Origin: an uncultured Pseudomonadales bacterium
Lineage (GTDB): Bacteria > Patescibacteriota > Microgenomatia > UBA1400
DNA length: 64,000 nucleotides
Direction: 5' to 3'
NCBI GenBank assembly: GCA_964589815.1
Contig: CAZPUR010000003.1
Span: 42,554-106,553 of the forward strand
The notes beneath the pieces are model-generated. The model saw only the letters and a list, made by a program, of their open reading frames with translations. It was not told the DNA's origin and did not search any database. Each line of letters opens with the position of its first letter. Position 1 is the first letter of the stretch. The translations under genes were made by a program, and so were the position numbers. Below are positions 26,460-44,200 of this stretch, in pieces.

Positions 26460-26470
26460 AATATCTAAAT

Positions 26471-26493: not shown

Positions 26494-26504
26494 AGCACTT
26501 TCAA

Positions 26505-26813: not shown

Positions 26814-26833
26814 TAAATTAAACACTCAAAATT

Positions 26834-26859
26834 TGGCCCGGTTTAAGGGCCATTTTTTT
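26834..26859 (+). terminator. intrinsic-terminator-like hairpin between rpsJ and rplC (TGGCCC-N7-GGGCCA + T7)
   Basis: 6-bp GC stem followed directly by seven T. Confidence 0.55.
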
Positions 26860-26892
26860 AGAGAGTTTATAGTGTCGTTACGGAGCGAATTT

Positions 26893-26950
26893 GTCATTCT
26901 GGAGCGAAGCGATAGAATCCCTTGGGATCCTTTGCTGTGCTCAGGATGAT
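26893..26950 (+). repeat. head-to-head pair of GTCATYCTG-type repeats forming one long hairpin
   Basis: GTCATTCTGGAGCGAAGCGATAGAATCCC / GGGATCCTTTGCTGTGCTCAGGATGAT. Arm differences are mostly T-versus-C (G.U in the sense RNA). The 3' arm covers the ATG at 26946. Confidence 0.75.
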
Positions 26951-26960
26951 TAATCATTCC

Positions 26961-27521
26961 ATGATTAATCAATTTTATGGATTTAAGATAGACCAACAAC
27001 AAACCTTTAATAATGAGGACAAGCGGTTAGTGGTGACCAAAATTAAAGTAGAGCCTTTAGAAGTCAAGCGGGTGAAAAATGAGGCTAAAGATGGCTATTG
27101 GGCTTTACAAGTTAAGGTGGGTAAGTTTCTCAGAGAGTTAAGATTAAATGAAGAACTTAAAATCAAGCCAGGAGAAAAAATCAATCCTGGCTCGGTTTTT
27201 AAAAAAGCTGATCGAGTTCAAGTAAAAGGCATAACTAAAGGCAGAGGTTTTGCAGGCGTGGTTAAACGCTGGGGTTTTCATGGAGGACCTAAAACCCATG
27301 GACAGTCTGATAGAGCGAGAGCTCCGGGTTCAATTGGTCAAGGAACTAGCCCGGGTCGGGTTTGGAAAGGCAAAAAAATGCCCGGCCATATGGGGAATAA
27401 ACCTAAAACTATTAAAGGCCTTAAGGTTTTTAAAATAGATGAAGATAAAGGCGAACTTTGGTTGGCTGGAGTAGTTCCAGGCAATAAAGGAGGACTACTC
27501 AAAATTAGCAAAATAGGCTAA
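26961..27521 (+). CDS. rplC: 50S ribosomal protein L3 (uL3)
   Basis: KGRGFAGVVKRWGFHGGPKTHGQSDRARAPGSIG motif. Start set at ATG 26961 by alignment logic to L3 N-termini; 26946 is possible. The caller's TTG at 26922 lies in the hairpin. Confidence 0.9.
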   Translation: MINQFYGFKIDQQQTFNNEDKRLVVTKIKVEPLEVKRVKNEAKDGYWALQVKVGKFLRELRLNEELKIKPGEKINPGSVFKKADRVQVKGITKGRGFAGVVKRWGFHGGPKTHGQSDRARAPGSIGQGTSPGRVWKGKKMPGHMGNKPKTIKGLKVFKIDEDKGELWLAGVVPGNKGGLLKISKIG

Positions 27522-27626
27522 TTTTGAGTAATAGCCAAATAATCCAATAAACGAATACTCAAATACTCAAAAAAATAATTTGTTTATTGGAAATATTGGA
27601 AATATTAGTTTATTTGAGTATTAATT
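27522..27626 (+). repeat. rplC-rplD spacer module with reciprocal TTTGAGTA / TACTCAAA and CCAATAAAC / GTTTATTGG complements
   Basis: TTTGAGTA at 27523 and 27613; TACTCAAA at 27555 and 27564; 9-bp complement 27544-52 / 27581-89. TATTGGAAA x2. Confidence 0.65.
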
Positions 27627-28262
27627 ATGCAAATTGATGTTATTAGTATCAGCGGCAGAAAATTAAGCCAGATGACCATTCCGGCAGAGATTTTTAATGC
27701 CAAAATTAATAATGTCTTAATGGTTCAGGCGGCTCGTGTTTTTTCAAGCAATCAACGCCAAAGTCCAGCCAAGACCAAAAGACGGGGAGAAATTAATCTT
27801 TCTGGTAGAAAAATTTACCGCCAGAAAGGTACAGGTCGGGCCAGACACGGAGACAAAAAGCCCGGCATTTTTGTTAAAGGTGCTAAAGCCCATGGTCCGA
27901 CCGGCGAGCAGAATTTTAAACTCAAAATAAGCAAAAAAATGAGAAGATTAGCCTTATACAGCGCCTTAAGTTATAAATTTAAAGAGAAAGAAGTAATGGT
28001 GATGAGCGGATTAGATAAAATTGAACCTAAAACCAAACAAATGACTAAAGTTATTAATCATCTAATCAATAAATCCCGCAAATTCACTTTTGTATTGCCA
28101 TCTAAATTGGAAAATGTAATTCGGGCAGGAAGAAATATAGCCGGAGTAAATTTAATCCAGGCAAGACAGCTAAACGCTTATCAGGTTTTAAATGCTGGCC
28201 AATTAGTTTTTATGAAAGAAAGTATTGAAGTTTTAAAAGACACGTTTATTAAGAAAAGATGA
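27627..28262 (+). CDS. rplD: 50S ribosomal protein L4 (uL4)
   Basis: RQKGTGRARHG motif; operon position. Confidence 0.95.
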   Translation: MQIDVISISGRKLSQMTIPAEIFNAKINNVLMVQAARVFSSNQRQSPAKTKRRGEINLSGRKIYRQKGTGRARHGDKKPGIFVKGAKAHGPTGEQNFKLKISKKMRRLALYSALSYKFKEKEVMVMSGLDKIEPKTKQMTKVINHLINKSRKFTFVLPSKLENVIRAGRNIAGVNLIQARQLNAYQVLNAGQLVFMKESIEVLKDTFIKKR

Positions 28263-28609
28263 ATATCAATCAAGTTATTAAAAAACCACTAATTACAGAA
28301 AAAGCGATGGCGTTAGCTAAGGAGGGTAAGTATACTTTTATAGTTGATATCAAGGCTGATAAAAAAAAGGTTAAACAAGCCCTAGGAGTTTTATTTGGCG
28401 TTCAGGCAATTAAGGTTAATCTTTTAAAATATAAGGGAAAGAAAAAAAGAGCTTTTCGAATGCGCAAATTGATTAAAAAATCAGATTATAAAAAAGCAAT
28501 AGTGCAACTGAAAGAGGGTCAAAAAATAGAATTTTTTGAAGAAATTTCTGGAAAGAAGAAGGATAAATCCCGGCGCAAAGGCCGAGGATCGTCCTCTGGA
28601 CGAAAATGA
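28259..28609 (+). CDS. rplW: 50S ribosomal protein L23 (uL23)
   Basis: [11 protein letters not shown] start. ATGA overlaps on both sides. Confidence 0.93.
28587..28605 (+). repeat. GATCGTCCTCTGGACGAAA hairpin element forming the rplW tail and abutting the rplB ATG
   Basis: TCGTCC-TCT-GGACGA stem. Same core as 44211-44230 and 55047-55066. Confidence 0.7.
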
Positions 28610-29442
28610 AGGATTTTAAAATTTACAAACCAGTGACTGCCGGCAGAAGAAACCGGCTGGATCTTGTCAGTCGAGCCTTAAAAGTGAAGCCAGAGAAAAA
28701 ATTACTGGAAATTTTACCTAAAAGGTCAGGTCGAAACAATGCCGGTAAAATAACCGTTAGACATCAAGGTGGTCGGCAAAAAAGATTTTTGAGAAAAATT
28801 GATTTTAAACGCGAAAAACGTGGAATTTCCGCTAAAGTGTTCAGTATTGAATACGATCCTAACCGCTCAGCTAACATTGCCTTGATAGTTTATGAAGATG
28901 GAGAAAAAAGCTATATTCTGGCGCCTAAAGGACTAAAAATTGGAGCGAAAATTGAGACTGGTAAAAATGCTGATTTAAAGATAGGCAATGCCCTGCCTTT
29001 GAGAAAAATCCCTTTAGGAATGCCGATTCATAATTTGGAATTAAGCCCGGGTAAAGGGGCTCAGATAGTCAGAGGAGCCGGCACCGCCGCCCTGATCCAG
29101 TCAAAAGAAAAAAATTATGCCAGCGTCAAGCTACCTTCAGGAGAATTAAGGAAAATAAGCCTTGATTGTATGGCTACTTTGGGACAGATAGGCAATATTC
29201 ATGTTAAAGATGTATCTTTAGGTAAAGCTGGTAGAAAAAGACATCGAGGTATTAGACCATCAGTTCGGGGAGTAGCCATGCATCCTGGAGCTCATCCTCA
29301 TGGAGGCGGTGAAGGTCGGTCTGGTATAGGTATGCCCTCACCTAAGTCGCCTTGGGGTAAAAGGACTTTGGGAAAGAAAACCAGGAAAAAGAAGAAATAC
29401 TCTGATAAATATATTCTTAGAGACAGGAGAAAAAAATTATGA
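28606..29442 (+). CDS. rplB: 50S ribosomal protein L2 (uL2)
   Basis: [17 protein letters not shown] motif. Confidence 0.97.
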
Positions 29443-29723
29443 GCCGTTCATCTAAAAAAGGACCATATATTGACCAAAAACTTTTGAAAAAAGTTATGGC
29501 CCAGAAAAACTTAGCTAAAAAAGAACCGATTAAAACTTGGGCGAGAGCTTCTCAGATCCCACCTGAATTTGTTGGTCATAGTTTTAAAGTCCATAATGGC
29601 AGGACTTTTATCGAAGTTTTTATTAATGAAGCTATGGTTGGCCATCGTTTAGGAGAATTTGCTCCTACTCGAACCTTTAGGGGTCATGGTAAAGTGGTCA
29701 AAAGGGTAATAACTAAAACATAA
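29439..29723 (+). CDS. rpsS: 30S ribosomal protein S19 (uS19)
   Basis: [11 protein letters not shown] ... HNGRTF ... [11 protein letters not shown]. Confidence 0.96.
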
Positions 29724-29730
29724 AGGAGAA

Positions 29731-29834
29731 TTGTTACATTGTTACATTGTTACATTGTTGATAGTTTTTTGTAATACAAATCGGAAGGCTACTGTTAGCA
29801 ATGAAGCAATGAAGCAATGAAGCAATGAAGCAAT
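29731..29834 (+). repeat. foldback spacer: (TTGTTACA)x3 + TTGTTGAT on the 5' arm, (GCAATGAA)x4 on the 3' arm
   Basis: Units pair in register (per 8 nt: 6 Watson-Crick, 1 G.U, 1 A.A). Helix base at 29731/29833. Confidence 0.8.
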
Positions 29835-30221
29835 TTGTTAATTAAGGCGGAACAAAAATACGTTAGAATAAGCCCTCAAAAAATGAGGTTGGTGGCGACT
29901 GCGGTTAAAAACCTTGTTCCTGAAGAAGCTTTAGACAAATTAAAATTTTTAAATAAAAGAGCCGCCCAGCCTTTGGCTAAAGTTATTAAGCAGGCCTTGG
30001 CCAATGCAACCAATAATTTTAAATTAAAAAAAGAAAGCTTAAAATTTAAAAGTATTCAAATAAGAAAAGGATCAACTTATAAACGATGGAGATCAGTTTC
30101 TCGGGGTAGAGCCCATTCAATATTTAAAAGAACGAGTCATATCAGGGTGATATTGGAGAGCAAAGAGCGAAACGAAAAGAGCAAAGATGCAGATCAAATA
30201 TCAAAAAGAAAAGGCAAATAA
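29835..30221 (+). CDS. rplV: 50S ribosomal protein L22 (uL22), TTG start
   Basis: (M)LIKAEQKYVRISPQKMRLVA matches the L22 N-terminus. The TTG is the end of the last degenerate repeat unit. Confidence 0.92.
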   Translation: MLIKAEQKYVRISPQKMRLVATAVKNLVPEEALDKLKFLNKRAAQPLAKVIKQALANATNNFKLKKESLKFKSIQIRKGSTYKRWRSVSRGRAHSIFKRTSHIRVILESKERNEKSKDADQISKRKGK

Positions 30222-30222
30222 T

Positions 30223-30354
30223 GGAATTACAAATCACAAGCACCAAATATCAAATAAATTCAAAGCACCAAATTAAAAATTCTAAACGTTTTGAATTTAA
30301 AAATTTTAATTTGAATATTGTTTGGAGTTTGGAGTTTGGAGTTTGGAGTTTTCC
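30223..30354 (+). repeat. foldback spacer, ACCAAAT/ATTTGGT family copy C1, with (TTTGGAG)x4
   Basis: GGAATT..(A)GTTTTCC closing pairs, AAATTCAAA/TTTGAATTT core. Shares AATTACAAATCACAA (15 nt) with 33910-33924. Confidence 0.7.
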
Positions 30355-30371
30355 GACAGAAGGGAGGCAAT

Positions 30372-31028
30372 TTGGGTCAAAAAATTCACCCTTTCGGTTT
30401 TCGGTTGGGTAAACTTTACTCTTGGAAATCAAGATGGTTTGCCCAAAAACAGAATTACCAAAAGTTTTTATTAGAGGATTTTAATTTAAGAAAGTTTCTG
30501 GAAGACAAGCTCCAATTGGCGGGTTTGGTTAGAGCAGAAATTGAGCGTTCAATTAATACTATTAAGATTATTCTTTATGTTTCTCGTCCGGGAGTGGTTA
30601 TTGGTCGAGGCGGTTCCGGTCTGGAAACCTTGAAAAAAGAAATTAATAAAAAATTAAAAATTGATCCCAAAGACCCCAAGCAACTAAAAGTTGATTTGGA
30701 AGTCAGAGAGGTAAAAAATCCCGAGCTTTCAGCCCGATTAATAGCTCAAAGGATAGCCTTTCAGCTTAAAAAAAGGTATCCTCATCGTCGAGCGGTGGCT
30801 CAGGCAATGGAAAGAGTTATGGCCGCTGGTGCTAAAGGAGTAAAAATTGTTCTCGCTGGCCGAATCGCTGGCGCGGAAATTTCTAGAACAGAAAAGTATT
30901 CTAAAGGAAGGGTGCCTTTGCAAACCTTAAGAGCAGACATTGATTATGCTCAAATGCCAAGCCTGACCAAATCTGGCTATATTGGCATAAAAATTTGGAT
31001 TTATAAAGGAGAAGAAGAAGTTAAGTAA
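30372..31028 (+). CDS. rpsC: 30S ribosomal protein S3 (uS3), TTG start
   Basis: (M)GQKIHPFGFRLG is the canonical S3 N-terminus. SD GGGAGG sits 5 nt upstream. The caller's upstream extension is repeat-encoded. Confidence 0.93.
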   Translation: MGQKIHPFGFRLGKLYSWKSRWFAQKQNYQKFLLEDFNLRKFLEDKLQLAGLVRAEIERSINTIKIILYVSRPGVVIGRGGSGLETLKKEINKKLKIDPKDPKQLKVDLEVREVKNPELSARLIAQRIAFQLKKRYPHRRAVAQAMERVMAAGAKGVKIVLAGRIAGAEISRTEKYSKGRVPLQTLRADIDYAQMPSLTKSGYIGIKIWIYKGEEEVK

Positions 31029-31068
31029 AAGTTGACTATCAATAAACAACTTAATCAACTAAAAAACA
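31029..31068 (+). repeat. short copy (3' part) of the TTAAGTAGTTGATTA...CTATCAATAAACAACTTAATCAACTAAAAAACA family
   Basis: 31035-31068 is identical over 34 nt to 33058-33091 and ends at the rplP ATG. Confidence 0.8.
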
Positions 31069-31479
31069 ATGTTACAGCCAAAAAAATTAAAATACCGAAA
31101 GCATTTTCGTGGCACTAGAGCAGGAATAGCCACGGCCGGTAACGCTTTAGAGTTTGGTGAATATGGACTTAAAAGCTTAGGTAGGGGCTGGTTGAAAAGT
31201 GCTCAAATTGAGGCGGCTAGGAAAACAATAGCTCATTATACCAAAAGACAGGCTAAGCTTTGGATTAGAGTTTTTCCTGACAAAACTTATACCCAGAAAT
31301 CAGCTGGGAGCAGAATGGGGCAAGGAAAAGGCGATTTGCAGGGTTATGTAGCCGTAGTCAAACCAGGCCGGATTATTTTTGAGTTGGCAGGGGTAGAAAA
31401 AGAAATTGCCCAGGAAGCCATTAGACGGGCTGGTGCCAAATTACCTTTTAAAACGCGGTTTATAGAAAGAGAGCAGTAG
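31069..31479 (+). CDS. rplP: 50S ribosomal protein L16 (uL16)
   Basis: [15 protein letters not shown] start. Confidence 0.96.
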
Positions 31480-31502
31480 ACAAACGTTATTGAATATAAA
31501 AT

Positions 31503-31718
31503 ATGGCTAAAAAATCAAAAGCAGATAACAAGCTTGAATTACAAAAGCTCTCAATTCCCGAGCTTAACAAGTTGTTAAGACAAAGTCAGACAGAATGGCT
31601 AAAGCTAAAATTGGAACTGAAAACAGGTAAATTAAAAAACCTTCATCAGTCCAGACAAAAAAGAAAAGAGATTGCTCGGATTAAAACAATTATTAGAGAA
31701 AAGGAATTAGTAAAATAG
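31503..31718 (+). CDS. rpmC: 50S ribosomal protein L29 (uL29)
   Basis: Size, position and the [20 protein letters not shown] pattern. Confidence 0.88.
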
Positions 31719-31797
31719 AAATAAGTTCAAAAGTTCATTAAGTTCATAGAGTTAATAGTAAAAAATTACTCATAACTTGTTGAGCTCATAACTAATT
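31719..31797 (+). repeat. foldback spacer, GTTCATTAAGTTCAT family copy A1
   Basis: Alignable to 34454-34547 and 41368-41463. Ends ...ATAACTAATT directly at the rpsQ GTG. Confidence 0.75.
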
Positions 31798-32025
31798 GTG
31801 AAACAATTAACCGGTACAGTTGTCAGCATTAAGATGCAAAAAAGTGCGGTGGTCAAAGTTGACAGAACCTACCGTCATCCTTTATATAAAAAAACCATTA
31901 AAAAAAGTAAAAAATATTTAGTTGATAATCAACTTAAGGTTAAAAAAGGAGATAAAGTGATTATTCAAGAGTGCCGGCCAATAAGTAAGAGTAAGAGGTT
32001 TAGAATCATTAGAGTTATTAAGTAG
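31798..32025 (+). CDS. rpsQ: 30S ribosomal protein S17 (uS17), GTG start
   Basis: LTGTVVSIKMQKSAVVKVDRTYRHPLYKK pattern. Confidence 0.93.
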   Translation: MKQLTGTVVSIKMQKSAVVKVDRTYRHPLYKKTIKKSKKYLVDNQLKVKKGDKVIIQECRPISKSKRFRIIRVIK

Positions 32026-32173
32026 TGTATTAAGTAGTTGATTAGGTCCGACGCGATGGTCGGACCGTTAACTGATAGTTAACTGATAGTTTCTACCCAG
32101 TCAACGCGAGTCCTGACGTTACGTCGGGGCGAGCTAGTTAACCATAAATTAACTACTTAATTGACTATAAACG
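32026..32173 (+). repeat. foldback spacer, TTAAGTAGTTGATTA family copy with nested GC hairpins
   Basis: ATTAAGTAGTT (32030-40) is complementary to AACTACTTAAT near 32147-57. Nested GGTCCGAC-N6-GTCGGACC (32045-66) and CCTGACGTTACGTCGGGG (32112-29). (TTAACTGATAG)x2. Confidence 0.7.
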
Positions 32174-32548
32174 ATGATCCAATTACACACCATTTTAAAA
32201 CCAGCAGATAATTCTGGCGCCAAACGTTTAAGGGTGATTCATATCCATGGCGGCTCAACCCGCCCTTTTGGTTCTATTGGTGATATTACTACTTGTGCGG
32301 TTGACCAGGCTGATCCGCAGGGAATAGTTAAAGACTCACAATTGGTTAAAGTGGTTATCGTTAGAACCAAAAAAGAGATTAGAAGACCAGATGGTTCTTA
32401 TATTCGTTTTGATGATAATGCGGGTGTGGTGATCGAGAGTTTAAAAAATAAAGTGCCGGTGGGAACAAGAATTTTTGGTCCTATTGCCAGAGAGATAAAA
32501 GATTTAGGTTATAGCAAGATTGTTTCTATGGCATCGGAGGTGTTGTGA
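32174..32548 (+). CDS. rplN: 50S ribosomal protein L14 (uL14)
   Basis: [19 protein letters not shown] start. Confidence 0.96.
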
Positions 32549-32567
32549 TTCAAAGAATCACAACACC
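32539..32567 (+). repeat. perfect 13-bp hairpin (GGTGTTGTGATTC-AAA-GAATCACAACACC) containing the rplN stop codon
   Basis: Read directly. TGA at 32546-48 lies in the 5' arm. Confidence 0.8.
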
Positions 32568-32601
32568 CTGACCCCGTATTTATGCGGGAGAAGGATCTCA
32601 A

Positions 32602-32940
32602 ATGAAAAAGAATAAGCCAATTAGATTGAAAATGAAAATCCGCAAAGGAAATACTGTTAAAGTTATGGCTGGAAAAGATAAAGGTAAAACCGGCAAGGTG
32701 GAAAAAGTTTTACCTAAAGTTGCTGCAGTCTTAGTAGAAGGAGTTAATAAGTATAAAAAACATCTTAAACCCCAGGGTGAAGGTAAACCTGGTGGTATTG
32801 TAGAGATAAGTAAACCTTTACCTGTGGCTAATGTGGTTTTGCTCTGTCCCAAGTGCCAAAAACCAACCCGTGTGGGTTACCAAACAGACAGGAGTAATAA
32901 AAAATATAGAATTTGTAAAAAATGCAAGGAGGCAATATAA
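32602..32940 (+). CDS. rplX: 50S ribosomal protein L24 (uL24), with C-terminal CxxC..CxxC zinc-ribbon-like tail
   Basis: KGNTVKVMAGKDKGKTGKV KOW motif. Tail CPKCQKPTRVGYQTDRSNKKYRICKKC. Confidence 0.92.
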   Translation: MKKNKPIRLKMKIRKGNTVKVMAGKDKGKTGKVEKVLPKVAAVLVEGVNKYKKHLKPQGEGKPGGIVEISKPLPVANVVLLCPKCQKPTRVGYQTDRSNKKYRICKKCKEAI

Positions 32941-33091
32941 GTGTTAATTAAGTAGTTGATTAACTCGTTAACGCTCGTGTTAATTAGGTAGTTAATTAAC
33001 TAGTTTAATATAGTCCTATCAATCAACATGATCCGCCAGCTGGCGGAGAATAAATTAACTATCAATAAACAACTTAATCAACTAAAAAACA
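32941..33091 (+). repeat. foldback spacer, TTAAGTAGTTGATTA family, full copy
   Basis: 33015-33089 is identical over 75 nt to 41177-41251. TAGTTGATTA (32952-61) pairs with TAATCAACTA (33075-84). Carries palindrome TCCGCCAGCTGGCGGA (33032-47). Confidence 0.85.
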
Positions 33092-33646
33092 ATGAGTCGT
33101 TTACAACAAAAATACCAAAAAGAAATTGTTCCGGAGTTAAAAAAGGAATTTAAGATTAAAAATGATCTGGCTGTGCCTAAGGTAGCAAAAGTGGTACTTA
33201 ATGTGGGGATTGGCGAAATCGCTCATGATAAACAGGCTTTGGAAAAAGCCAAAAATACTTTAGCGGCCATTACCGGTCAGAAACCTTTAATTCGTCCGGC
33301 CAAAAAAGCAATTGCTGATTTTAAGATTAGAAAAGGCAATTCAGTCGGTCTTAAAGTAACTTTAAGAAGGAAAAGAATGTATGATTTTTTAGATAAACTA
33401 TTCTCTTTGGTTTTACCCTTGGTGCGTGATTTTCAGGGAGCTAAGCAGAATGCCTTTGATCAAGATGCCAATTATACCTTAGGCTTAAAAGAGCAGGTTA
33501 TTTTTCCTGAGGTGGACTATGATAAAATTGACAAGGTTCGAGGGATGGAGATTAGTATTGTTATCTCGACTAAAGACAAGAAAAAAGCAGCTAGATTGTT
33601 AGAATTAATGGGAATGCCGTTTACTAAGGAGGAATTAGGAAATTAG
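33092..33646 (+). CDS. rplE: 50S ribosomal protein L5 (uL5)
   Basis: SRLQQKYQKEIVPELKKEF start and the NVGIGE region. Confidence 0.95.
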   Translation: MSRLQQKYQKEIVPELKKEFKIKNDLAVPKVAKVVLNVGIGEIAHDKQALEKAKNTLAAITGQKPLIRPAKKAIADFKIRKGNSVGLKVTLRRKRMYDFLDKLFSLVLPLVRDFQGAKQNAFDQDANYTLGLKEQVIFPEVDYDKIDKVRGMEISIVISTKDKKKAARLLELMGMPFTKEELGN

Positions 33647-33653
33647 GATAAAA

Positions 33654-33705
33654 GTGATTAGTCAAAAAAAGACTAATCACTAATCACTAATCACTAATCA
33701 CTAAA
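33654..33705 (+). repeat. 10-bp perfect hairpin (GTGATTAGTC-A7-GACTAATCAC) followed by (TAATCAC)x4
   Basis: The heptamer array 33674-33701 places TAA in all three frames just before the S14 start position. Confidence 0.8.
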
Positions 33706-34034: not shown

Positions 34035-34054
34035 ATTAGTGAACGGAGTGAACA

Positions 34055-35102: not shown

Positions 35103-35114
35103 GGAGTCTAAATA

Positions 35115-35528
35115 ATGATTAAACGTTACAAGCATAAAACGCTTAAAAGAAAAATCAAGATCAGGGCCAAACTTTTGAAAATAGGTCGAAGACCCAGGTT
35201 ATCTGTTTTTCGTTCTAATAAATATATTTATGCCCAGATTATTGATGACCAAAAAGGAAAAACACTGGCGGCGGCTAGTGAAAAAGACATAAAAGAAAAC
35301 TCCAATCCGCCAGCTGGCGGACCAAAACTCCCCCGACCTCGCCTCGGCTCGGCCGAGGGCGGGCAAAACTCCAAGATTAACAGAGCGTTTCAGGTGGGTC
35401 AAATCTTGGCCAAGAAAGCCTTAAAAATAAAGATTAAAAAAGTATATTTTGACCGCGGCGGCTATAAATATCATGGCCTGATTAAAGCCTTAGCTGAGGG
35501 TGCCAGAAAAGGAGGACTGGAGTTCTAA
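35115..35528 (+). CDS. rplR: 50S ribosomal protein L18 (uL18) with a 23-codon GC-rich insertion
   Basis: RLSVFRSNKYIYAQIIDD and GGYKYHG motifs. Insertion NPPAGGPKLPRPRLGSAEGGQNS. Confidence 0.93.
   Translation: MIKRYKHKTLKRKIKIRAKLLKIGRRPRLSVFRSNKYIYAQIIDDQKGKTLAAASEKDIKENSNPPAGGPKLPRPRLGSAEGGQNSKINRAFQVGQILAKKALKIKIKKVYFDRGGYKYHGLIKALAEGARKGGLEF
35295..35371 (+). repeat. two adjacent GC palindromes, each bounded by the 8-nt direct repeat AAAACTCC (three copies)
   Basis: AAAACTCC at 35295, 35323 and 35364. Cores TCCGCCAGCTGGCGGA (35305-20) and CCCGACCTCGCCTCGGCTCGGCCGAGGGCGGG. Periods 28 + 41 = 69 nt. Confidence 0.85.
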
Positions 35529-35582
35529 TCCGCCAGCCTCGCTGAGCGGGGCCAGCTGGCAGACTAATTCCTAATTTCTAAA

Positions 35583-36071
35583 ATGCAAAGACAGAGACAG
35601 AGAGAATTTGATAATAAGCAATTCTGGGGCAAGAAGGAATTTGAAGAAAAGGTAGTTCAAGTTAAAAGAGTTTCAAAGAAAACTAAAGGCGGTAATCAAA
35701 TTAGATTTACAGCTTTGGTAGTAGCAGGGAATAAAAAGGGGAAGGTAGGCGTGGGCTTAGGTAAAGCCCCAGATGTTCTATCAGCCATTCAAAAAGGCAC
35801 CCGTTTAGCCAAAAAAAATCTGATTAATGTTCCTATACAAGCAGGAACCATCAGCCATGATGTTTATGTTAAAAGGGGGGCGGCTAAAGTTTTATTAAGG
35901 TCTGCGCCCGAGGGTACGGGTGTGATTGCTGGCGGGCCGGTAAGATATGTAGTTGAGGCAGCTGGAGTGAGGAATATTGTTTCTAAAATTTTAGGCACCA
36001 AAAATAAAGCTAGCAATATTTATGCCACTATAGAGGCATTGAAGCAGTTAAAGAGGAGAAAGGATAAATGA
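35583..36071 (+). CDS. rpsE: 30S ribosomal protein S5 (uS5)
   Basis: VVQVKRVSKKTKGGNQIRFTALVVAGN pattern. Confidence 0.95.
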   Translation: MQRQRQREFDNKQFWGKKEFEEKVVQVKRVSKKTKGGNQIRFTALVVAGNKKGKVGVGLGKAPDVLSAIQKGTRLAKKNLINVPIQAGTISHDVYVKRGAAKVLLRSAPEGTGVIAGGPVRYVVEAAGVRNIVSKILGTKNKASNIYATIEALKQLKRRKDK

Positions 36072-36700
36072 AACTCAACAAACTATCCCAAACAACCAAA
36101 ACAACCAAAAAAAGAGTTGGCCGCGGTTATGGTTCAGGCAAGGGCGGTCATACAGCTGGTCGAGGCCAGAAAGGCCAAAAATCACGAAGTAAAGTAGGCT
36201 TGCTTTTTGAAGGCACGAAAATGCGCAAGTCTTTAATCAGGCGTCTACCAATGCAGAGAGGCAAAGGTAAATTTAAGTCTTTTAAAAGCAAACCAATTAT
36301 TTTGAATGTTAAATATTTGAATCTTTTGAAAAGTGGGACTAAAGTAGATGTGGAAGTTTTAATTAAAGAAGGTTTGGTGGCCAAAGAAGCCTTAACCTTA
36401 GGAATGAAAATTCTAGGTGATGGGGTTTTAGAGAAGAAACTGACAGTAGTTTTGCCAGTTTCTCAGGGAGCCAAGAAAAAAATCGAAAAAGCTGGAGGCA
36501 AGGTGATAAACGCGAAAGACGCTAAAAAAAGAGAGGCGAAAAAACCTAAAATTCGTAAGCAGATTAAAAAATCACAAAAATCCTCAAAGACCAAAGAAAC
36601 CAGAACTACCCGAAAAAAACCAACCACAAAAACTAAAATAAAAAGAGGCAGTCCCGCCTTGACTCAGACTCGGCGAGGCAGGCAAAAAAAAACTAAATGA
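36068..36700 (+). CDS. rplO: 50S ribosomal protein L15 (uL15) with a long Lys-rich C-terminal extension
   Basis: [28 protein letters not shown] motif. Overlaps rpsE by 4 nt, so no rpmD between them. Confidence 0.93.
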
Positions 36701-37986
36701 ATCGCATTCTTCAGCCCATTATCAACGCCTTTAAGGTTTCCGAACTGAGAAAGAAAATTGTTTTTACCTTGCTAATGTTCATTGTTTTCAGGTTGACAGC
36801 CCATATTCCCGTTCCTGGAGTTGACCTGGAAGCTTTAAAAATGCTTTTTTCCCGTAATCAATTTTTAGGCCTTTTAGATATTTTCTCTGGCGGTACTTTA
36901 ACCAATTTTTCCATTATTGCCATCGGCCTTTCTCCCTATATTAACGCTTCCATTATTTTACAGCTTTTAACTATGGTTTTCCCCAAATTAGAAGAATTAA
37001 GTAAAGAGGGTGAATTAGGAAGAGAAAGAATTAATCAATACACTCGTTTTTTAACCATTCCTTTAGCTATTTTTCAGTCCGTGGGAATGATGGCGATTTT
37101 AAAAAAGCAGCAGATTTTTACCAGCTTAAATTTTCTCAATCTGGGTTTAATTGTGGTAACCATGACCAGCGGTTGTTTATTTTTAATGTGGTTAGGAGAA
37201 CTGATTACCCGTTATGGAATTGGTAACGGTATTTCTTTATTGATTTTTGGTGGGATTGTGGGTCGTCTACCGGTTTCTTTAGCGCAAACAGTTTCTTTAG
37301 TGGAAACAGTTAGTTTTTTTAATCTCTTGGTTTTTGTGGTTATGGCGATTGGGGTTATCGCCGCCATTTGTTTTGTCAATGAAGCCCAAAGGCAAATTAC
37401 AGTTTCTTATGCCCGCAGGGTTCAGGGCCGAAAGATGTATGGCGGTTCCAGTACTCATCTGCCTTTAAGAGTAAATCAAGCAGGAGTTATTCCTATTATT
37501 TTTGCTGTTTCTTTGGTCTTGATTCCCAATATGCTGGCCACTTGGTTGCAGACCTTGCCTAATCAAAAACTGGCCAATTTGGCCGTTTTTATGGCTCGGC
37601 TTTTTGATCCTCAAAGCCTTTTTTATAATCTTTTTTACTTTCTACTGGTAATTGCTTTTACTTATTTTTATACCGCCGTCACTTTTAATCCTGAAAAAAT
37701 CGCCGAAGAAATTAAAAAACATGGCGGTTTTATTCCAGGCATTAGACCCGGCAAACCTACGGCCGAGTACCTGAATTATATTTTAACCCGGATCACTTTG
37801 GCTGGCGCAGTTTTTTTAGGTCTGGTGGCGATTTTACCTTCTCTAGCCCGAGTTTTAACCGGCGTCACCACCATGATGATTGGCGGCACTGGTATTTTAA
37901 TCGTGGTTTCAGTCATTTTAGAAACCAGCAAATCTTTGGAAGCTCAACTTTTAATGAGAAATTATGATGGATTTTTAAAGGAGTAA
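36697..37986 (+). CDS. secY: preprotein translocase subunit SecY
   Basis: 429-aa polytopic protein with SecY motifs ([23 protein letters not shown]). Confidence 0.96.
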
Positions 37987-38136
37987 ATTTTCAATTTTCA
38001 AATCCCAATTTTCATTGAATTTTCAAATCCCAATTTTCAAACTGCATTTAAAAAGATCAAAAAAGTTTGAGAATTAAAAAATTGTAAATTAATTATTCAT
38101 TGTAAATTGAAAATTGTTAAATTGAAAATTAAAATT
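37986..38136 (+). repeat. foldback spacer between secY and adk with (ATTTTCAAATCCCAATTTTCA)x2
   Basis: 37986-38001 pairs with 38122-38136 (15 bp, one bulged C at 37992) by manual pairing. The helix base joins the last nt of the secY TAA to nt -1 of the adk ATG. Confidence 0.75.
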
Positions 38137-38727
38137 ATGTACATAATTTTCTACGGTCCTGAAGGTTCAGGTAAAACCACCCAGGCCAAATTGCTGGCCG
38201 AAAAATTAAACCTGCCTTATTTAGGTTCAGGCGATTTAGTCCGCCATTATGCTGCCCGGGATAAAGGCATTATGGGTGATGTTTGCCGCGAAGCCTTATC
38301 CATCGGCCATTATGTGCCTGATTCAGAAATGTTTGTTTTATGGAAACAGCGTTTAAAAGAGTCGGATGTCCAAAGTGGTTGGATTTTAGATGGTTTCCCG
38401 CGCAACGACACTCAAGCAGATTTTTTAGATGATAAATTAGATAAATATGGAAAAAAAGTAGATGCGGTTTTTTATATCAAAGTTAAGGAGAGTACTTCGA
38501 TTAAACGTCTGACCAAACGCGGCCGCCGCAATCCGGATGGCAGTTTACATGATGATCCTAAAAAAGTCCGGGAGAGACTGCGGATTTATAAAAAGGGCGA
38601 AAAGGGTGTTTTAGATTTATATAAGAAAAGAGGCGTCTTGTATGCTATTGATGGCGAGCCCAGCATTGAGCAGATTCACAAAGAGGTTTTACAGAGGGTA
38701 GAAAAACTGACTCTGGCGTCATCCTGA
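38137..38727 (+). CDS. adk: adenylate kinase
   Basis: MYIIFYGPEGSGKTTQAKLLAEKL P-loop start. The caller's TTG at 38107 lies in the repeat arm. Confidence 0.92.
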   Translation: MYIIFYGPEGSGKTTQAKLLAEKLNLPYLGSGDLVRHYAARDKGIMGDVCREALSIGHYVPDSEMFVLWKQRLKESDVQSGWILDGFPRNDTQADFLDDKLDKYGKKVDAVFYIKVKESTSIKRLTKRGRRNPDGSLHDDPKKVRERLRIYKKGEKGVLDLYKKRGVLYAIDGEPSIEQIHKEVLQRVEKLTLASS

Positions 38728-38743
38728 GCGCAGCGTAGGATCT
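38718..38743. repeat. GTCATCCTGAGCGCAGCGTAGGATCT repeat overlapping the adk stop codon
   Basis: The adk TGA (38725-27) is the TGA inside the GTCATCCTGA motif. Confidence 0.75.
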
Positions 38744-38745
38744 AT

Positions 38746-39444
38746 ATGAAAATTCTTAAAAAAAACTTACAAATCGCTATTGATGGATTAGTTGGCGCCG
38801 GCAAAAGTGTCGGCGCTCATCGTTTGGCCCAACGTTTAGGGATTTTGTATGTTTATACTGGCGCCATGTATCGGGCGACTGCTCTTTTAGGCATTCAAAA
38901 CAACACTGATCTTAAAGACGAAGCCAAACTTATAGCTTTGTTAAAAAAAAGCACCATTAAACTAATGCCTGCTTCCAAAAAAAGCCGGGTTTGCGATGTT
39001 TTTATTGACGCTAAGGACGTGACCGATGAACTCTTTTCTTCTCAAGTGAATTGGGGATCTTCAGTCGTAGGTCTTTTGCCCAGGGTAAGAAAATATTTGG
39101 TTAAACTTCAGCAGGAAATTGCTAAAGGTCAGGCAGTGGTCATGGAGGGCAGAGATATTACCACCGTAGTTTTGCCCCAAGCTGACCTCAAAATTTTTCT
39201 GACAGCTGAGCTTAAAATTAGAGCCAAAAGAAGACTTAAAGACTTGCGCCAAAGAGGAGAAAAAAAGACCTTAGAACAAGTGATTGAGGAAACAGTTAAA
39301 AGAGATTACCAAGATTCGCACCGTCAAGCTGATCCCCTAAGAATTGTCAAAGGCGCTTGGGTTTTAGACACTAGCAACCTTACCATTGATCAAGAAGTAG
39401 ATCTGATGATCAAACGCCTAAAAGCCAAGAAACTAGTTAGTTAG
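38746..39444 (+). CDS. cmk: cytidylate kinase
   Basis: IAIDGLVGAGKSVGAHRLAQRLG and GRDITTVV motifs. Confidence 0.9.
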   Translation: MKILKKNLQIAIDGLVGAGKSVGAHRLAQRLGILYVYTGAMYRATALLGIQNNTDLKDEAKLIALLKKSTIKLMPASKKSRVCDVFIDAKDVTDELFSSQVNWGSSVVGLLPRVRKYLVKLQQEIAKGQAVVMEGRDITTVVLPQADLKIFLTAELKIRAKRRLKDLRQRGEKKTLEQVIEETVKRDYQDSHRQADPLRIVKGAWVLDTSNLTIDQEVDLMIKRLKAKKLVS

Positions 39445-39445
39445 C

Positions 39446-40246
39446 ATGAAAATTCCTATAAAAACTCCTCAGCAAATTCAAATTATGAAGCAAGGTGGCT
39501 ATAAGCTGGGTCGGATTTTAGGTCAGCTAGTTAAAATGGCCCAGCCTGGAGTTAACCTTTTAGATATTGAAAAAAAAGCGATGGTTTTAATTAAAAAAAC
39601 TGGAGGAGAAGCTGGATTTGCCCGGGTACCTAATTATCATTGGGCCACTTGCCTTAATATTAATGAGGAAATTGTTCATGGTGTTCCTAAAGATTATTTA
39701 CTTAAAAGCGGTGATGTTTTAAATATAGACATTGGTTTATATTACCGAGGCTTTAATACAGATATGAGCAGTACCATTTATATAAAAAATCCTCGTCATC
39801 CTGAACTCGTTTCAAGATCTATAAAAAAATTCCTTTCTACTGGTAAAAAAGCTCTCCAAGAAGCTATCAAACAAGCTCAACCTGGCAATCGGGTCGGTCA
39901 TATTTCCCAAAAAATTCAAGAGATTATAGAAGGAGCTGGTTATTCTTGCGCCCGTACTCTTACTGGCCATGGAATTGGCAAACAATTGCATCAGCCGCCT
40001 TCGATTCCCTGTTTTCTTAGGGATTCAATAGAAGAAACGCCCATTTTAAAAGAAAAAATGGCTCTGGCAATTGAGGTGATTTATTGTCTGGGAAAACCAG
40101 AGTTAGTGATTGATCCTCAAGATAGATGGACAATTAGAACCAAAGATGGTCGGTTAACGGCAGTTTTTGAAAAAACTATCGCTGTAACTGAAAAAGGGCC
40201 AGTAATTATCACTCCGTTTGAGGGAAAAGAGTCCCATAATATTTAA
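39446..40246 (+). CDS. map: type I methionine aminopeptidase with a 13-codon repeat-derived insertion
   Basis: VHGVP, DIGLYYRGFNTDMS, GHGIG and AIEV metal-site motifs. Confidence 0.94.
   Translation: MKIPIKTPQQIQIMKQGGYKLGRILGQLVKMAQPGVNLLDIEKKAMVLIKKTGGEAGFARVPNYHWATCLNINEEIVHGVPKDYLLKSGDVLNIDIGLYYRGFNTDMSSTIYIKNPRHPELVSRSIKKFLSTGKKALQEAIKQAQPGNRVGHISQKIQEIIEGAGYSCARTLTGHGIGKQLHQPPSIPCFLRDSIEETPILKEKMALAIEVIYCLGKPELVIDPQDRWTIRTKDGRLTAVFEKTIAVTEKGPVIITPFEGKESHNI
39781..39830 (+). repeat. GTCATCCTGAACTCGTTTCAAGATC element flanked by the direct repeat TATAAAAAA, in-frame in map
   Basis: Direct repeats at 39781-89 and 39820-28, period 39 nt. Encodes NPRHPELVSRSIK. Confidence 0.85.
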
Positions 40247-40283
40247 CAGAAGGTAGAGTTGGGATATAATATATTTTATTATT

Positions 40284-40454
40284 ATGGAAGAAAAGATAAA
40301 AATAAGGAGTTCCCTTACTCTTCATGCTCCAGAAGGTAACGTAAAAACAGTTCCTATAAGAGAAGGGGGTTTAAAATGGTTGGCCCAAGCAGCTGATAAG
40401 AGGATGCAAAGATTGCGTGATGAGGGGGCAACTCCTGAAAGCAATCCTTTTTAG
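40284..40454 (+). CDS. hypothetical 56-aa protein (possibly the 5' part of a frameshifted gene)
   Basis: Own translation MEEKIKIRSSLTLHAPEGNVKTVPIREGGLKWLAQAADKRMQRLRDEGATPESNPF. TATAAT at 40265-70 upstream. Below the ORF-track size cutoff. Confidence 0.4.
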   Translation: MEEKIKIRSSLTLHAPEGNVKTVPIREGGLKWLAQAADKRMQRLRDEGATPESNPF

Positions 40455-40498
40455 AAGATTTAAATAGCCTTATACATGTAAGTGGGCAGCCGTTTCCT

Positions 40499-40753
40499 TT
40501 GGAACCACTTGAACCCTCAGGGGAAGAGATATTTGTAGAGAAAGCAGTAAATATTGTTGGTGAAGTAATGGCAGTAATAGAATCAGTTGATGATTCAACT
40601 CTTCCTAAATGGCAAAGAGCGCTTTTAAAAACACCAGAAGGAGAAGAGCAACTTCGAGACTTAAAAATTCAGGCTTTTGACCAGATGGCTAGTTTAATTA
40701 GAGAGGGTCTTGGGCTTAGTGAAGGAGAGAGTATTTTGGAGCTGTTGGATTAA
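40499..40753 (+). CDS. hypothetical acidic 84-aa protein (frame is open upstream to 40443)
   Basis: ORF-track entry with a TTG start and no SD. Its frame is the -1 frame of ORF 40284..40454 and opens 12 nt before that ORF's stop. Confidence 0.4.
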   Translation: MEPLEPSGEEIFVEKAVNIVGEVMAVIESVDDSTLPKWQRALLKTPEGEEQLRDLKIQAFDQMASLIREGLGLSEGESILELLD

Positions 40754-40860
40754 GACTAATTATATTCAAGCTATCAGGCTAGACAATTAGAGCCACTTCT
40801 GATAAAATAACCCTGTTATTATAAACCATCGCTATTATGGTGATGGTTGTTTAGTTTTGC

Positions 40861-40889
40861 TTGTTAACAGGCTAATTTTTTGCTAAAAT
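40861..40889 (+). promoter_or_regulatory. putative infA promoter (TTGTTA, 17 nt, extended -10 TGcTAAAAT)
   Basis: The -10 ends 11 nt before the ATG at 40901. Confidence 0.5.
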
Positions 40890-40900
40890 AGTTTCAATTT

Positions 40901-41119
40901 ATGTCACAACCCAAAGGAGAAGTAGTTGAAGGCGAAGTTTTAGAAGCTTTGCCTAATGCTATGTTTCGGGTTAAAACGACCGAAGGACAATTGTTGCTTT
41001 GTACTTTATCAGGCAAAATGAGAATTAATCGGATTCGGGTTTTGCCTGGAGATCAAGTCAAGCTGGAAACTACTCCTTATGATGAAACTAGGGGTAGAAT
41101 TGTTTATAGAACCAAGTAA
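40901..41119 (+). CDS. infA: translation initiation factor IF-1
   Basis: [33 protein letters not shown]...[12 protein letters not shown] (S1-like IF-1 pattern). Confidence 0.96.
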
Positions 41120-41253
41120 ATATAGTTATTAAGTGGTTGATTAGCTCGCAACGCTCGCGTTAATTAGGTAGTTAATCCTATCAATCAACATGATCCGCCA
41201 GCTGGCGGAGAATAAATTAACTATCAATAAACAACTTAATCAACTAAAAAATC
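41120..41253 (+). repeat. foldback spacer, TTAAGTAGTTGATTA family, second full copy
   Basis: 41177-41251 is identical to 33015-33089. Lacks ~18 nt present in the other copy. Ends at the rpmJ ATG. Confidence 0.85.
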
Positions 41254-41367
41254 ATGAAAGTCAAAGCCTCAGTTAAAAAACGATGTAAAAAATGTAAGGT
41301 AGTAAAGCGCCGCGGCCGCATTTATATTGTTTGTAGTAATAAGCGCCATAAGCAAAGACAAGGATAA
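41254..41367 (+). CDS. rpmJ: 50S ribosomal protein L36 (bL36)
   Basis: Absent from the ORF track (37 aa). Own translation [37 protein letters not shown]. Confidence 0.95.
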
Positions 41368-41463
41368 AAAAGAGAAATAAGAAATAAGTTCATTAAGTTA
41401 TTAAGTTAATAGTAAAAGAAAAAAATTACTAATAACCAATAACCTGTTGAACCAATAACTAAT
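41368..41463 (+). repeat. foldback spacer, GTTCATTAAGTTCAT family copy A3
   Basis: GTTATTA pairs perfectly with TAATAAC where copy A2 has GTTCAT/ATAAC with a bulged C. Ends ...ATAACTAATT at the rpsM TTG. Confidence 0.75.
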
Positions 41464-44197: not shown

Positions 44198-44200
44198 AAT

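Follow-up and report, generated by a model that had tools for sequence, protein, structure and literature searches.

What is a series of hairpin-forming repeats doing between the genes of a ribosomal protein (r-protein) superoperon? The question is raised by a 64,000-nucleotide stretch of contig CAZPUR010000003.1 (assembly GCA_964589815.1; hereafter the window, or 64-kb window), in which the S10-spc-alpha superoperon occupies positions 26505-44197 of the + strand. Its genes are in the universal order, i.e. rpsJ, rplC, rplD, rplW, rplB, rpsS, rplV, rpsC, rplP, rpmC, rpsQ, rplN, rplX, rplE, rpsN, rpsH, followed by rplF, rplR, rpsE, rplO, secY, adk, cmk, map, two small open reading frames (ORFs), infA, rpmJ, rpsM, rpsK, rpsD, rpoA and rplQ. 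Few gene arrays of prokaryotes are as conserved and as compact as the S10-spc-alpha cluster, and the genomes of the Candidate Phyla Radiation (CPR), to which the host belongs, are highly streamlined, so that hairpin repeats of 60-160 nt at most junctions of this operon are unexpected. We suggest that the spacers are very probably several fast-turnover families of palindromic repeats, resembling repetitive extragenic palindromic (REP) elements or miniature inverted-repeat transposable elements (MITEs), that were inserted in the operon junctions. The fuller account, to which we give somewhat better than even chances, is that these inserts are tolerated because their fold holds stop and start codon together while the terminating ribosome opens the foot of the hairpin. 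Full-text literature searches retrieved no description of r-protein junctions filled with hairpins in this manner.

The host is a member of the Patescibacteria (CPR), Microgenomates group. Its SecY is 72-76% identical to that of metagenome-assembled genomes labelled Candidatus Beckwithbacteria and UBA1400, and 55-65% identical to that of Shapirobacteria. Contigs of other samples from the Joint Genome Institute (JGI) are 100% identical to the window over the operon region, so that an assembly artefact in a single sample does not account for the spacers; three sample contigs are identical to the window, which means that there is no population variation among them. A search for close sister genomes gave 59% identity for the closest S8 homologue found. 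Coverage of the host genome is partial, and the comparisons below draw on relatives and metagenome contigs designated by L numbers, while the enrichment of the repeats in the operon was assessed in the 64-kb window and a 4 kb extension of the contig on one side.

Hairpin spacers of the superoperon

An earlier interpretation made from the letters of the DNA and its ORFs (hereafter the sequence-only reading) had listed 13 spacers of the superoperon as self-complementary, and all 13 are: the minimum free energy (MFE) of the sense strand is between -13 and -56 kcal/mol, with z-scores of -3.3 to -6.5 against 200 dinucleotide shuffles per spacer. Among the 14 operon spacers of at least 45 nt, 12 have a z-score of -3 or lower when folded as whole spacers, and the largest helix spans 65-95% of the spacer. 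These values come from junction-by-junction folding, which was used instead of a sliding 120-nt z-score scan that was too noisy at 12 shuffles per window; most modules escaped a finder of exact inverted repeats, which takes no account of mismatches or G.U pairs.

The arms are indeed built from tandem sub-repeats. Tandem Repeats Finder (TRF) reports units with 100% matches, namely ATTGTTAC x3.8 (29730-59) and AGCAATGA x4.8 (29797-834) at rpsS/rplV, GTTTGGA x4.6 (30320-51), ACTAATC x4.7 (33672-704) and TATTGGAAA x2.4. Unit lengths are mostly 7-9 nt, some arms have 12-nt units, and the 21-mer ATTTTCAAATCCCAATTTTCA of the secY/adk junction has exactly two occurrences. The A/U-rich modules are listed below, with Shine-Dalgarno motifs abbreviated as SD and the repeat families that are described in the next section as F1 to F3.

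27522-27626, + strand: rplC/rplD module; 5' arm (CAAATAAT)n, 3' arm (TATTGGAAA)x2.4, TRF repeats at 27536-71 and 27585-606; ATG without SD; -19.2 kcal/mol, z -3.3
29724-29834, + strand: rpsS/rplV module; AGGAG right after the stop, (ATTGTTAC)x3.8, loop, (AGCAATGA)x4.8, TTG start; SD 5-mer on the 5' side only; -35.1 kcal/mol, z -6.5
30222-30371, + strand: rplV/rpsC module, F3; G-poor 5' arm, (GTTTGGA)x4.6 as 3' arm, own SD GGGAGG, TTG at 30372; -32.9 kcal/mol, z -4.1
31719-31797, + strand: rpmC/rpsQ module, F1 copy 1; GTG start abuts; -16.7 kcal/mol, z -4.5
32941-33091, + strand: rplX/rplE module, F2; 5' arm with stops in all frames (GTTAATTAAGTAGTTGATTAAC), nested palindrome TCCGCCAGCTGGCGGA, G-poor leader ending in ...AACTAAAAAACA before ATG; -35.5 kcal/mol, z -4.7
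33622-33705, + strand: rplE/rpsN module, TAATCAC family; degenerate 5' arm (AGGAATTAGGAAATTAGGAT..GTGATTAGTC), A7 loop, GACT(AATCACT)x4.7; z -6.3
33892-34054, + strand: rpsN/rpsH module, F3; own SD (GGAG), then ATG; in style like the modules of L021; -33.6 kcal/mol, z -3.9
34454-34547, + strand: rpsH/rplF module, F1 copy 2; TTG start abuts; -20.9 kcal/mol, z -5.3
37987-38136, + strand: secY/adk module; 5' arm 2 x ATTTTCAAATCCCAATTTTCA, 3' arm (ATTGAAA)n; helix from 0 nt after the stop to ~6 nt before ATG; AAGGAG just before the stop
41120-41253, + strand: infA/rpmJ module, F2 copy 2; -31.8 kcal/mol, z -4.5
41368-41463, + strand: rpmJ/rpsM module, F1 copy 3; TTG start abuts; -14.7 kcal/mol sense, -22.0 antisense, z -5.2

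The spacers had been described as A/U-rich throughout, and this holds for the 11 modules above but not for two other spacers of the original 13, 26893-26950 (GC 0.50) and 32026-32173 (GC 0.43). The statement that nearly every non-overlapping junction carries such a module was too strong: from tuf to rpsI a listed spacer is found at 13 of 24 non-overlapping junctions, and the 11 others comprise eight of 1-24 nt and three of 37, 44 and 45 nt. The junctions that had been named as module-free do overlap, by 1 or 4 nt each. Beyond the original 13 there are three further elements, i.e. a compact F2-type copy and two GC-rich hairpins, which are given here with the two exceptions.

26893-26950, + strand: rpsJ/rplC spacer; GC 0.50, inverted dimer of the motif GTCATYCTGRGCG.AGCG.AGRATC, a class apart from the A/U-rich modules; -25.5 kcal/mol, z -3.8
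31029-31068, + strand: rpsC/rplP, compact F2-type copy; 34 nt identical to the F2 3' arm and leader; pairs with the last codons and the stop of rpsC
32026-32173, + strand: rpsQ/rplN composite module; GC 0.43, F2-like outer A/T-rich arms with two GC-rich palindromes nested inside; -56.3 kcal/mol, z -6.0
32549-32601, + strand: rplN/rplX spacer; a GC-rich hairpin straddles the rplN stop, with a second small hairpin; not an A/U-rich module; SD-like AAGGA retained before ATG; -29.2 kcal/mol with flanks
35529-35582, + strand: rplR/rpsE spacer; GC-rich hairpin from the stop codon on; ATG without SD, AAGGAGG upstream of the stop; -22.5 kcal/mol with flanks

In the 11 A/U-rich modules the median distance from the stop to the outermost helix is 4 nt (range 0-20), and that from the helix to the start codon is 10 nt (range 4-26). 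The closeness of the helix to both codons, as claimed in the sequence-only reading, is thus confirmed by the medians, but the ranges are slightly wider than had been proposed. In several modules the 5' arm enters the end of the upstream coding region and provides its stop codon (rplE, rpsQ, rpsC); at rpsQ/rplN the 5' arm repeat begins within the coding end of rpsQ, and a TRF array (32013-44) spans the stop codon.

The proposal that many mismatches pair as G.U in the mRNA sense only did not hold up when both orientations were folded. It is true for rpsS/rplV (-35.1 sense vs -14.5 kcal/mol antisense) and rplV/rpsC (-32.9 vs -22.6) only, while the antisense is the better fold at secY/adk (-26.2 sense vs -32.4) and at rpmJ/rpsM, as listed. 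In a scoring-neutral alignment of the arms we counted 19 G:T-type versus 19 A:C-type mismatches in the window and 49 versus 57 in 33 CPR modules; the more stable strand is the sense in 25 spacers and the antisense in 24. Antisense folds are equally stable overall, an outcome that the sequence-only reading had itself counted against its proposal. The apparent G.U bias of single modules arises because tandem arms copy one unit mismatch into every repeat.

Repeat families and their distribution

Families were defined by BLAST of the spacers against the window and by alignments. F1 has three copies, at rpmC/rpsQ, rpsH/rplF and rpmJ/rpsM, with 85-94% identity (94% over 48 nt between rpmC/rpsQ and 34474-521, 85% over 96 nt between rpsH/rplF and 41369-463). 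The two full copies of F2, at rplX/rplE and infA/rpmJ, share 76 nt that are 100% identical (41176-251), and further F2 copies are the compact one at rpsC/rplP, which is 100% identical over 34 nt to 33058-91 and over 32 nt to 41220-51, and the diverged composite at rpsQ/rplN. F3 is found at rplV/rpsC and rpsN/rpsH with 85% identity over 54 nt (vs 33938-91). Identical G-poor leaders (...CAACTTAATCAACTAAAAAACA) precede three different genes. A remnant of F3 is the only related sequence outside the operon in ~53 kb (49 kb of the window and the 4 kb extension).

61853-61950, + strand: F3 remnant between two ABC-2 transporter genes; ends kept (AAATGACCAAAT ... TTGGTGCTTGGAATTTA), middle missing, then (TTAATTAGA)n

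The remnant has exact matches of 17-20 nt to both F3 copies, and its fold is not significant (z -0.2). Every intergenic region of the remaining 49 kb and the 4 kb extension was read and folded, and no complete A/U-rich module was found there; what they contain are promoter regions and GC-rich hairpins that resemble terminators or REPs. The density is therefore 13-16 modules in 15 kb of operon versus one remnant in ~53 kb.

Small GC-rich palindromes are nested within several modules. The 16-nt perfect palindrome TCCGCCAGCTGGCGGA occurs four times in the window (12973, 33032, 35306, 41194) where 0.1 occurrences are expected, and in another CPR organism, from sample Ga0154696, hairpin modules are built around it as well (L034 ~1820-1838; L079 ~1300). 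One copy lies in frame inside rplR. In-frame GC-rich palindromes within r-protein genes are in fact seen at two places, rplR 35296-35372 and rplO ~36640-36690; at the rplR site three direct repeats of AAAACTCC border TCCGCCAGCTGGCGGA and a second palindrome. The L18 protein has 137 aa here versus 114-120 in relatives, and L15 has 210 aa versus ~147-187. Another short hairpin is repeated together with a start codon, in two exact matches where 0 are expected by chance.

44199-44224, + strand: hairpin unit ATCAGCCARAGGCTGATCGTCCT+TTG, 26 nt, before rplM; an identical unit stands before recA at 55034-55059, and TTG is the start codon at both

A further observation concerns a 1199-nt JGI contig (L002, JGI 3300031365) in which infA is directly followed by rplE. 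This contig is most likely an assembly chimera that was joined via the 76-nt exact repeat of the two F2 modules.

Orthologous junctions in other genomes

In the closest genomes available (L004, L005, L022) the same junctions are compact, -4 to +10 nt, which means that the orthologous sites are empty there; the rplC/rplD junction measures 1-10 nt in L004, L005, L009 and L011, and the operon of L108 is compact as well. Unrelated hairpin spacers are present at the same or other junctions in L021, L012, L026, L027, L028, L034, L079 and L092. In L021, 13 of 21 junctions are at least 45 nt long, and at rpsS/rplV and rplV/rpsC three genomes contain three different modules. The spacers are not conserved at orthologous junctions, and the sequence-only reading had named conservation across distant relatives, as for ordinary leaders, as an observation that would speak against it.

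The most regular case is L109 (ENA GROS21-1 scaffold_564, 2978-11582), where a spacer of 73-400 nt is found at every junction from rpsJ to rpsE. Nine of these spacers are copies, ~90% identical, of one 73-nt hairpin (-25 to -31 kcal/mol), with 0-7 nt between the upstream stop and the hairpin and 1-4 nt between the hairpin and the ATG; the element is also present at junctions that overlap in the window (rplD/rplW, rplW/rplB, rplB/rpsS). A different kind of sharing is seen for the rplE/rpsN module of the window, which aligns over ~85 nt, 47 of them exact and including the loop, with the spacer at a different junction, rpsH/rplF, of L027, a genome whose S8 is only 56% identical to that of the window. 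In the window, the 5' arm of this module contributes the final codons of rplE and its stop, so the element was inserted into a gene end; rpsN follows, with ATC at its start position. A metagenome scan for GACT(AATCACT)3 gave 77 contigs; among them are CPR contigs in which the TAATCAC module stands before rplW, rpsC and rplV, all with TTG starts, and in L096 and L098 modules are found beside non-ribosomal genes too. Hairpin repeats recur independently in several CPR lineages.

Among paralogous copies, compensatory changes are limited to one pair in F1 (3 copies), with none in the L109 family (9 copies). Since the paralogs show almost no compensatory change, the copies look like young repeats rather than old conserved RNAs. 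That the spacers are inserted, repeated foldback elements, as the sequence-only reading proposed, is borne out by families shared between different junctions, by empty sites in relatives, by unrelated families elsewhere and by one module in common with a distant genome.

The same scan unexpectedly returned hairpins of another type. In GC-rich metagenome genomes of other phyla (GC 0.59-0.68; contigs including L030, L031, L041, L044, L061, L068, L072, L089 and L101), hairpins of the form (AGTGAWT)n-AGTC-GC-rich core-GACT-(AATCACT)n, with -60 to -100 kcal/mol, are located right after stop codons. Both arms have stops in all three frames, and no Rfam family covers these hairpins.

Translation signals behind the hairpin spacers

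The operon genes were mapped by tblastn in 18 CPR loci and 294 junctions were classified, start codons being assigned by alignment to the window proteins. Starts other than ATG are found at 22 of 64 junctions of at least 45 nt, as opposed to 19 of 230 shorter ones (Fisher p=1e-6), and an SD-like motif is present in the 20 nt before the start at 12 of 64 and 131 of 230 junctions, respectively (p=4e-8). Both contrasts persist without the window, where TTG is the start codon of rplV, rpsC, rplF and rpsM, and GTG that of rpsQ. When only junctions with significant hairpins are considered, the SD 5-mer precedes the start in 2 of 33 cases; beside the upstream stop it occurs in 11 of 33, against a background of 0.14 (p=0.005), and in 5 of 12 in the window. 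In the window, for instance, AGGAG directly follows the rpsS stop, while secY ends with AAGGAG and rplX with AAGGAGG. The hairpin junctions have a median distance of 3 nt from stop to helix and of 9 nt from helix to start.

The extreme case is rpsN, which encodes a zinc-ribbon type S14 (Pfam E=6e-27). After the preceding TAA there is no in-frame ATG, GTG or TTG (33688-33708), the ATC at 33706 aligns with the ATG of the relatives' rpsN, and, judged from this alignment, ATC appears to be the start codon of rpsN. On the identical contig L001 the gene was missed by the JGI gene caller. Expression by a frameshift on A-AAA-AAG (33663-69) was considered and rejected, as both shifted frames reach stops before rpsN.

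Searches for known signals

Rfam gave no matches at gathering score in the window, none at E<=1 in 26400-44300, and in 16 related loci tRNA and rRNA were the only matches. As candidates for r-protein autoregulatory leaders the spacers were rejected: there is no covariance-model match, they are absent in L004, L005 and L022, and unrelated sequences take their place in L079, L092, L021 and L109. Intrinsic terminators were rejected as well, since no A/U-rich module was picked up by a terminator scan of the + strand and no T-run follows the stems; only 26834-52 scored. A promoter scan found 36 sites compared to 40 +/- 7 in shuffles, which dismisses internal promoters in the modules, with exceptions in the rpsJ/rplC and map-infA regions. 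An integron attC site does not fit either, as the module ends do not conform to R''/R' cores (RYYYAAC ... GTTRRRY), the r-protein gene order is universal and no integrase is encoded in the window.

The rpsJ/rplC and map-infA regions look like transcription-unit boundaries. Directly after rpsJ there is a terminator-like hairpin with a T-run (26834-52), followed by a promoter-like TTGTCA-16-TAGAAT at 26891-918 that overlaps the rpsJ/rplC spacer, and comparable hairpins are found after rpsJ in L006 and L034. From these motifs we speculate that the operon may be split or attenuated between rpsJ and rplC. The motif of the spacer is also present at 38718-42, at the end of adk, and, inverted, at 26926-50. 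Between map and infA there are two small ORFs (56 and 84 aa; 40284-40753) that have no Pfam match, are absent from the relatives examined and are flanked by promoter-like and terminator-like sites. About 30 nt upstream of infA (40860-40889, TTGTTAACAGGCTAATTTTTTGCTAAAATAG) are 93-97% conserved in L004, L006, L013 and L022 and resemble a -35/-10 promoter; it is the only spacer sequence of the operon that is conserved across relatives.

A possible mechanism

The modules are almost certainly transcribed as part of the operon mRNA, because they lie inside a co-directional operon and have no terminator T-runs. We propose that the elements would have been inserted in stop-to-start junctions and then lengthened by slippage within them; slippage after insertion could also homogenise each arm, as the uniform mismatches within arms point to. 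The fold would keep the upstream stop and the downstream start within a few nt of the two feet of one helix. A start codon that is 1-10 nt from a helix of -15 to -55 kcal/mol, without SD and often of a weak kind, is a poor site for independent binding of the 30S subunit.

What could happen at such a junction may be described in three steps. Firstly, a ribosome terminating at the upstream stop would cover and melt the base pairs of the outer helix; a terminating ribosome covers roughly 6-9 nt past the stop codon. Secondly, the 5-15 nt before the downstream start would be set free while the inner helix stays folded. Thirdly, the same ribosome, or one recruited at that moment, would initiate at the downstream start, i.e. 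re-initiate across the hairpin. This sequence of events would explain how r-protein genes can be without SD and have TTG, GTG or ATC starts. The near-absence of SD behind hairpin spacers and the excess of TTG and GTG starts at long junctions give indirect backing to the idea of the sequence-only reading that folding may bring stop and start back into proximity. At a third of the modules an SD is retained on the 5' side, and this could contribute a split ribosome-binding site like those of T4 genes 38 and 25. A folded spacer would also deny Rho a loading site, a possible further reason why only hairpin-forming inserts survive in operons. In E. coli the upstream ribosome unfolds structures that its footprint overlaps (Tian and Salis 2015, PMC4538824), and re-initiation is strongest at overlaps or short distances and falls with linear distance (PMC4538824).

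On these junction features we rate the chance that coupling is the reason why the elements are tolerated or used at just below even. A number of points weigh against it, or against the mobile nature of the elements. The hairpin potential is strand-symmetric, the sequence gives no sign that selection acts on the RNA and not on the DNA palindrome, and the tight abutment to stop and start is partly a trivial outcome of a whole palindrome being inserted in a compact junction. A split ribosome-binding site cannot be the rule, as an SD is missing on both sides at two thirds of the hairpin junctions, and three modules (rplV/rpsC, rpsN/rpsH, rplN/rplX) have kept their own downstream SD. The start codons behind the statistics were obtained by alignment, and the 294 junctions are not phylogenetically independent. 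Finally, no transposase is found among the Pfam-scanned ORFs outside the operon in the 64-kb window, and the flanks that were read show no consistent target-site duplication, a TA/TAA target at the stops being possible but inconsistent across copies. The term MITE-like is apt insofar as the elements are small (60-160 nt), without ORF, folded back, present in several copies, all complete ones seen in the window lying within the ribosomal operon, and matched by empty sites in relatives; with no consistent duplication in the flanks read and no transposase in the window, they are at most candidate MITEs in the strict sense.

It is doubtful, though conceivable from the layout of stops, helices and starts, that the elements have been domesticated as intercistronic coupling devices, in which the ribosome is handed from the 5' foot across the folded element to the start at the 3' foot. 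If this were true, they would be a bacterial counterpart of ribosome shunting or of hairpin-bridged termination-reinitiation, they would provide the normal initiation of SD-less r-protein cistrons (UUG, GUG, AUC) in several CPR lineages, and they would enforce one-to-one synthesis along a 15-kb operon. The loss of SD together with weak starts makes the locus a natural multi-copy test case of whether a folded spacer can preserve coupling over a long linear distance, be it by hairpin-bridged re-initiation or by ribosome-assisted unmasking. There are practical sides as well: the repeats break assemblies, with one chimeric contig as an example, they hide genes from gene callers, such as rpsN without its canonical start, and they add element-derived C-terminal residues to ribosomal proteins.

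Alternative explanations

The alternative that survives best, which we still consider unlikely, is that the spacers are neutral DNA, selfish or born of slippage, that initiation is SD-independent and of the S1 type on G-poor A/U-rich tails, and that the hairpin is harmless, e.g. by offering no loading site to Rho. The strand symmetry of the folds would be as expected, and so would the rapid turnover of families at orthologous junctions, the paralogs with broken pairs and almost no compensatory changes, the identical G-poor leaders before three different genes and the modules beside non-ribosomal genes in another genome (L096, L098). However, starts located 1-10 nt from the feet of stable helices leave the standard 30S binding region paired, weak starts (TTG, GTG, ATC) without SD are unexpected for the most highly expressed genes under independent initiation, and neutral DNA does not account for the concentration of the modules in the operon.

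A functional role of a different kind, which seems to us rather improbable, would be that of processing or stability modules: hairpins that are cut, by RNase III in the stems or RNase Y beside them, or that block exonucleases, would segment the operon mRNA, and the downstream cistrons would be translated from processed ends. The stems are long, RNase Y is encoded in the window (56897-58435), and in other bacteria the processing and stability of mRNAs are influenced by Correia elements, ERIC-type repeats and REP hairpins. On the other hand, most stems are interrupted every 6-8 bp and are poor substrates of RNase III, no RNase III gene was seen in the 64-kb window, and the pairing is without strand bias. 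Moreover, cleavage would leave a short SD-less leader, often with a TTG or GTG start, and leaderless or near-leaderless initiation normally needs AUG.

A role at the DNA level, with cruciforms or single-strand hairpins as sites for recombination, transposition or replication, either attC-like or as REP-like sites for gyrase or integration host factor (IHF), is very improbable. It would agree with palindromes that are equally good on both strands, and the gene-hairpin-gene-hairpin layout is superficially similar to integron cassette arrays, but the gene order is the universal one of S10-spc-alpha and identical in module-free relatives, the ends misfit attC cores, and neither integrase nor transposase is encoded in the window. 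Classical autoregulatory leaders (S8, S4, L4 and similar sites mimicking rRNA) share with the spacers the position before r-protein cistrons known from model bacteria, and they can practically be dismissed, as there is no Rfam match at gathering score or E<=1, the closest relatives lack the spacers, one sequence stands before different genes and different sequences occupy the same junction in related genomes.

Comparison with known systems

The general features of these inserts, which we prefer to regard as REP/MITE-like repeats tolerated through the stop-to-start bridging of their fold, can be compared to several known systems. REP/BIME and REPIN sequences of Enterobacteria and Pseudomonas are likewise short, non-coding, multi-copy intergenic palindromes that are co-transcribed in operons; the likeness is greatest for the nested GC-rich palindromes, TCCGCCAGCTGGCGGA and the inverted dimer at 26893-950. 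A REP or REPIN is a 20-40-nt GC-rich imperfect palindrome with a conserved head that is mobilised by a RAYT transposase, while the A/U-rich modules are 60-160 nt long, consist of tandem 7-9-nt units and have no conserved head of the GTAG type. In addition, no RAYT (Y1_Tnp) gene is present in the 64-kb window, and the modules are confined there to one operon. The nested GC-rich palindromes, on the other hand, might qualify as REPs.

Correia elements of Neisseria and the ERIC/IRU MITEs of enterobacteria are similar in being 70-160-nt foldbacks with empty sites in relatives that are co-transcribed, inserted next to or into gene ends, and able to change the expression of flanking genes. The modules differ in that they have no consistent target-site duplication and no terminal inverted repeat distinct from the arms, and in their internally repetitive arms, their precise span from stop to start and their association with the loss of SD. 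We know of no autonomous partner of the modules. The heptamer arrays of cyanobacteria (STRR) are also composed of tandem 7-nt intergenic units, comparable to GTTTGGA x4.6 and ACTAATC x4.7, but here inverted pairs of arrays of 2-5 units form a hairpin inside an operon of a CPR host, and the units differ from the canonical STRR units. Long arrays of TAATCAC/TAATGAC heptamers are found in the metagenome contigs L029, L074 and L105.

With respect to translation, T4 genes 38 and 25 have split ribosome-binding sites, cauliflower mosaic virus (CaMV) uses hairpin-mediated shunting and T4 gene 60 is translated by bypassing; what shunting, bypassing and split sites would have in common with the modules is that a hairpin loops out RNA so that distant signals become neighbours. 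In-frame insertions such as the Rickettsia palindromic elements resemble the GC-rich palindromes inside rplR and rplO. Ribosome-assisted unfolding and re-initiation (PMC4538824) would be similar insofar as the structure masking the next start is opened by the ribosome that arrives from upstream. The coupling structures known from bacteria are short and specific to single genes, whereas here a repeated element of 60-160 nt would act in this way at a dozen consecutive junctions. The hairpin repeats of sponge and fungal mitochondrial genomes (PMC2800124) have likewise spread into the few intergenic sites that very compact genomes offer. The hosts and sequences of the mitochondrial and Rickettsia elements are different, and they are not known to be linked to stop-start junctions or to changes of start codons. 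The modules share only some of the defining features of REP/BIME, REPIN, Correia/ERIC MITEs and heptamer arrays each, and are distinguished by tandem-repeat arms, exact stop-to-start placement, near-saturation of the most conserved operon, and the loss of SD together with weak starts.

Other observations in the window

Three further features lie outside the superoperon. The rpsG-fusA spacer (22751-23086) is unusually long, with 336 nt, GC 0.40, an MFE of -93.6 kcal/mol and z -2.6; it has no Rfam match, and the only ORF within it (55 aa) is without a Pfam match. A small ORF with a GIY-YIG nuclease domain (104 aa, 13671-13985) is located directly upstream of tRNA-Cys and the rpoB-rpoC operon. 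Finally, a 24-nt tandem repeat x3.5 (TTTCGTGTCTAGAAATTTAGCGCTA) is positioned at 58521-58604, upstream of the gene for HU, and on its 5' side two GC-rich hairpins follow the RNase Y gene.

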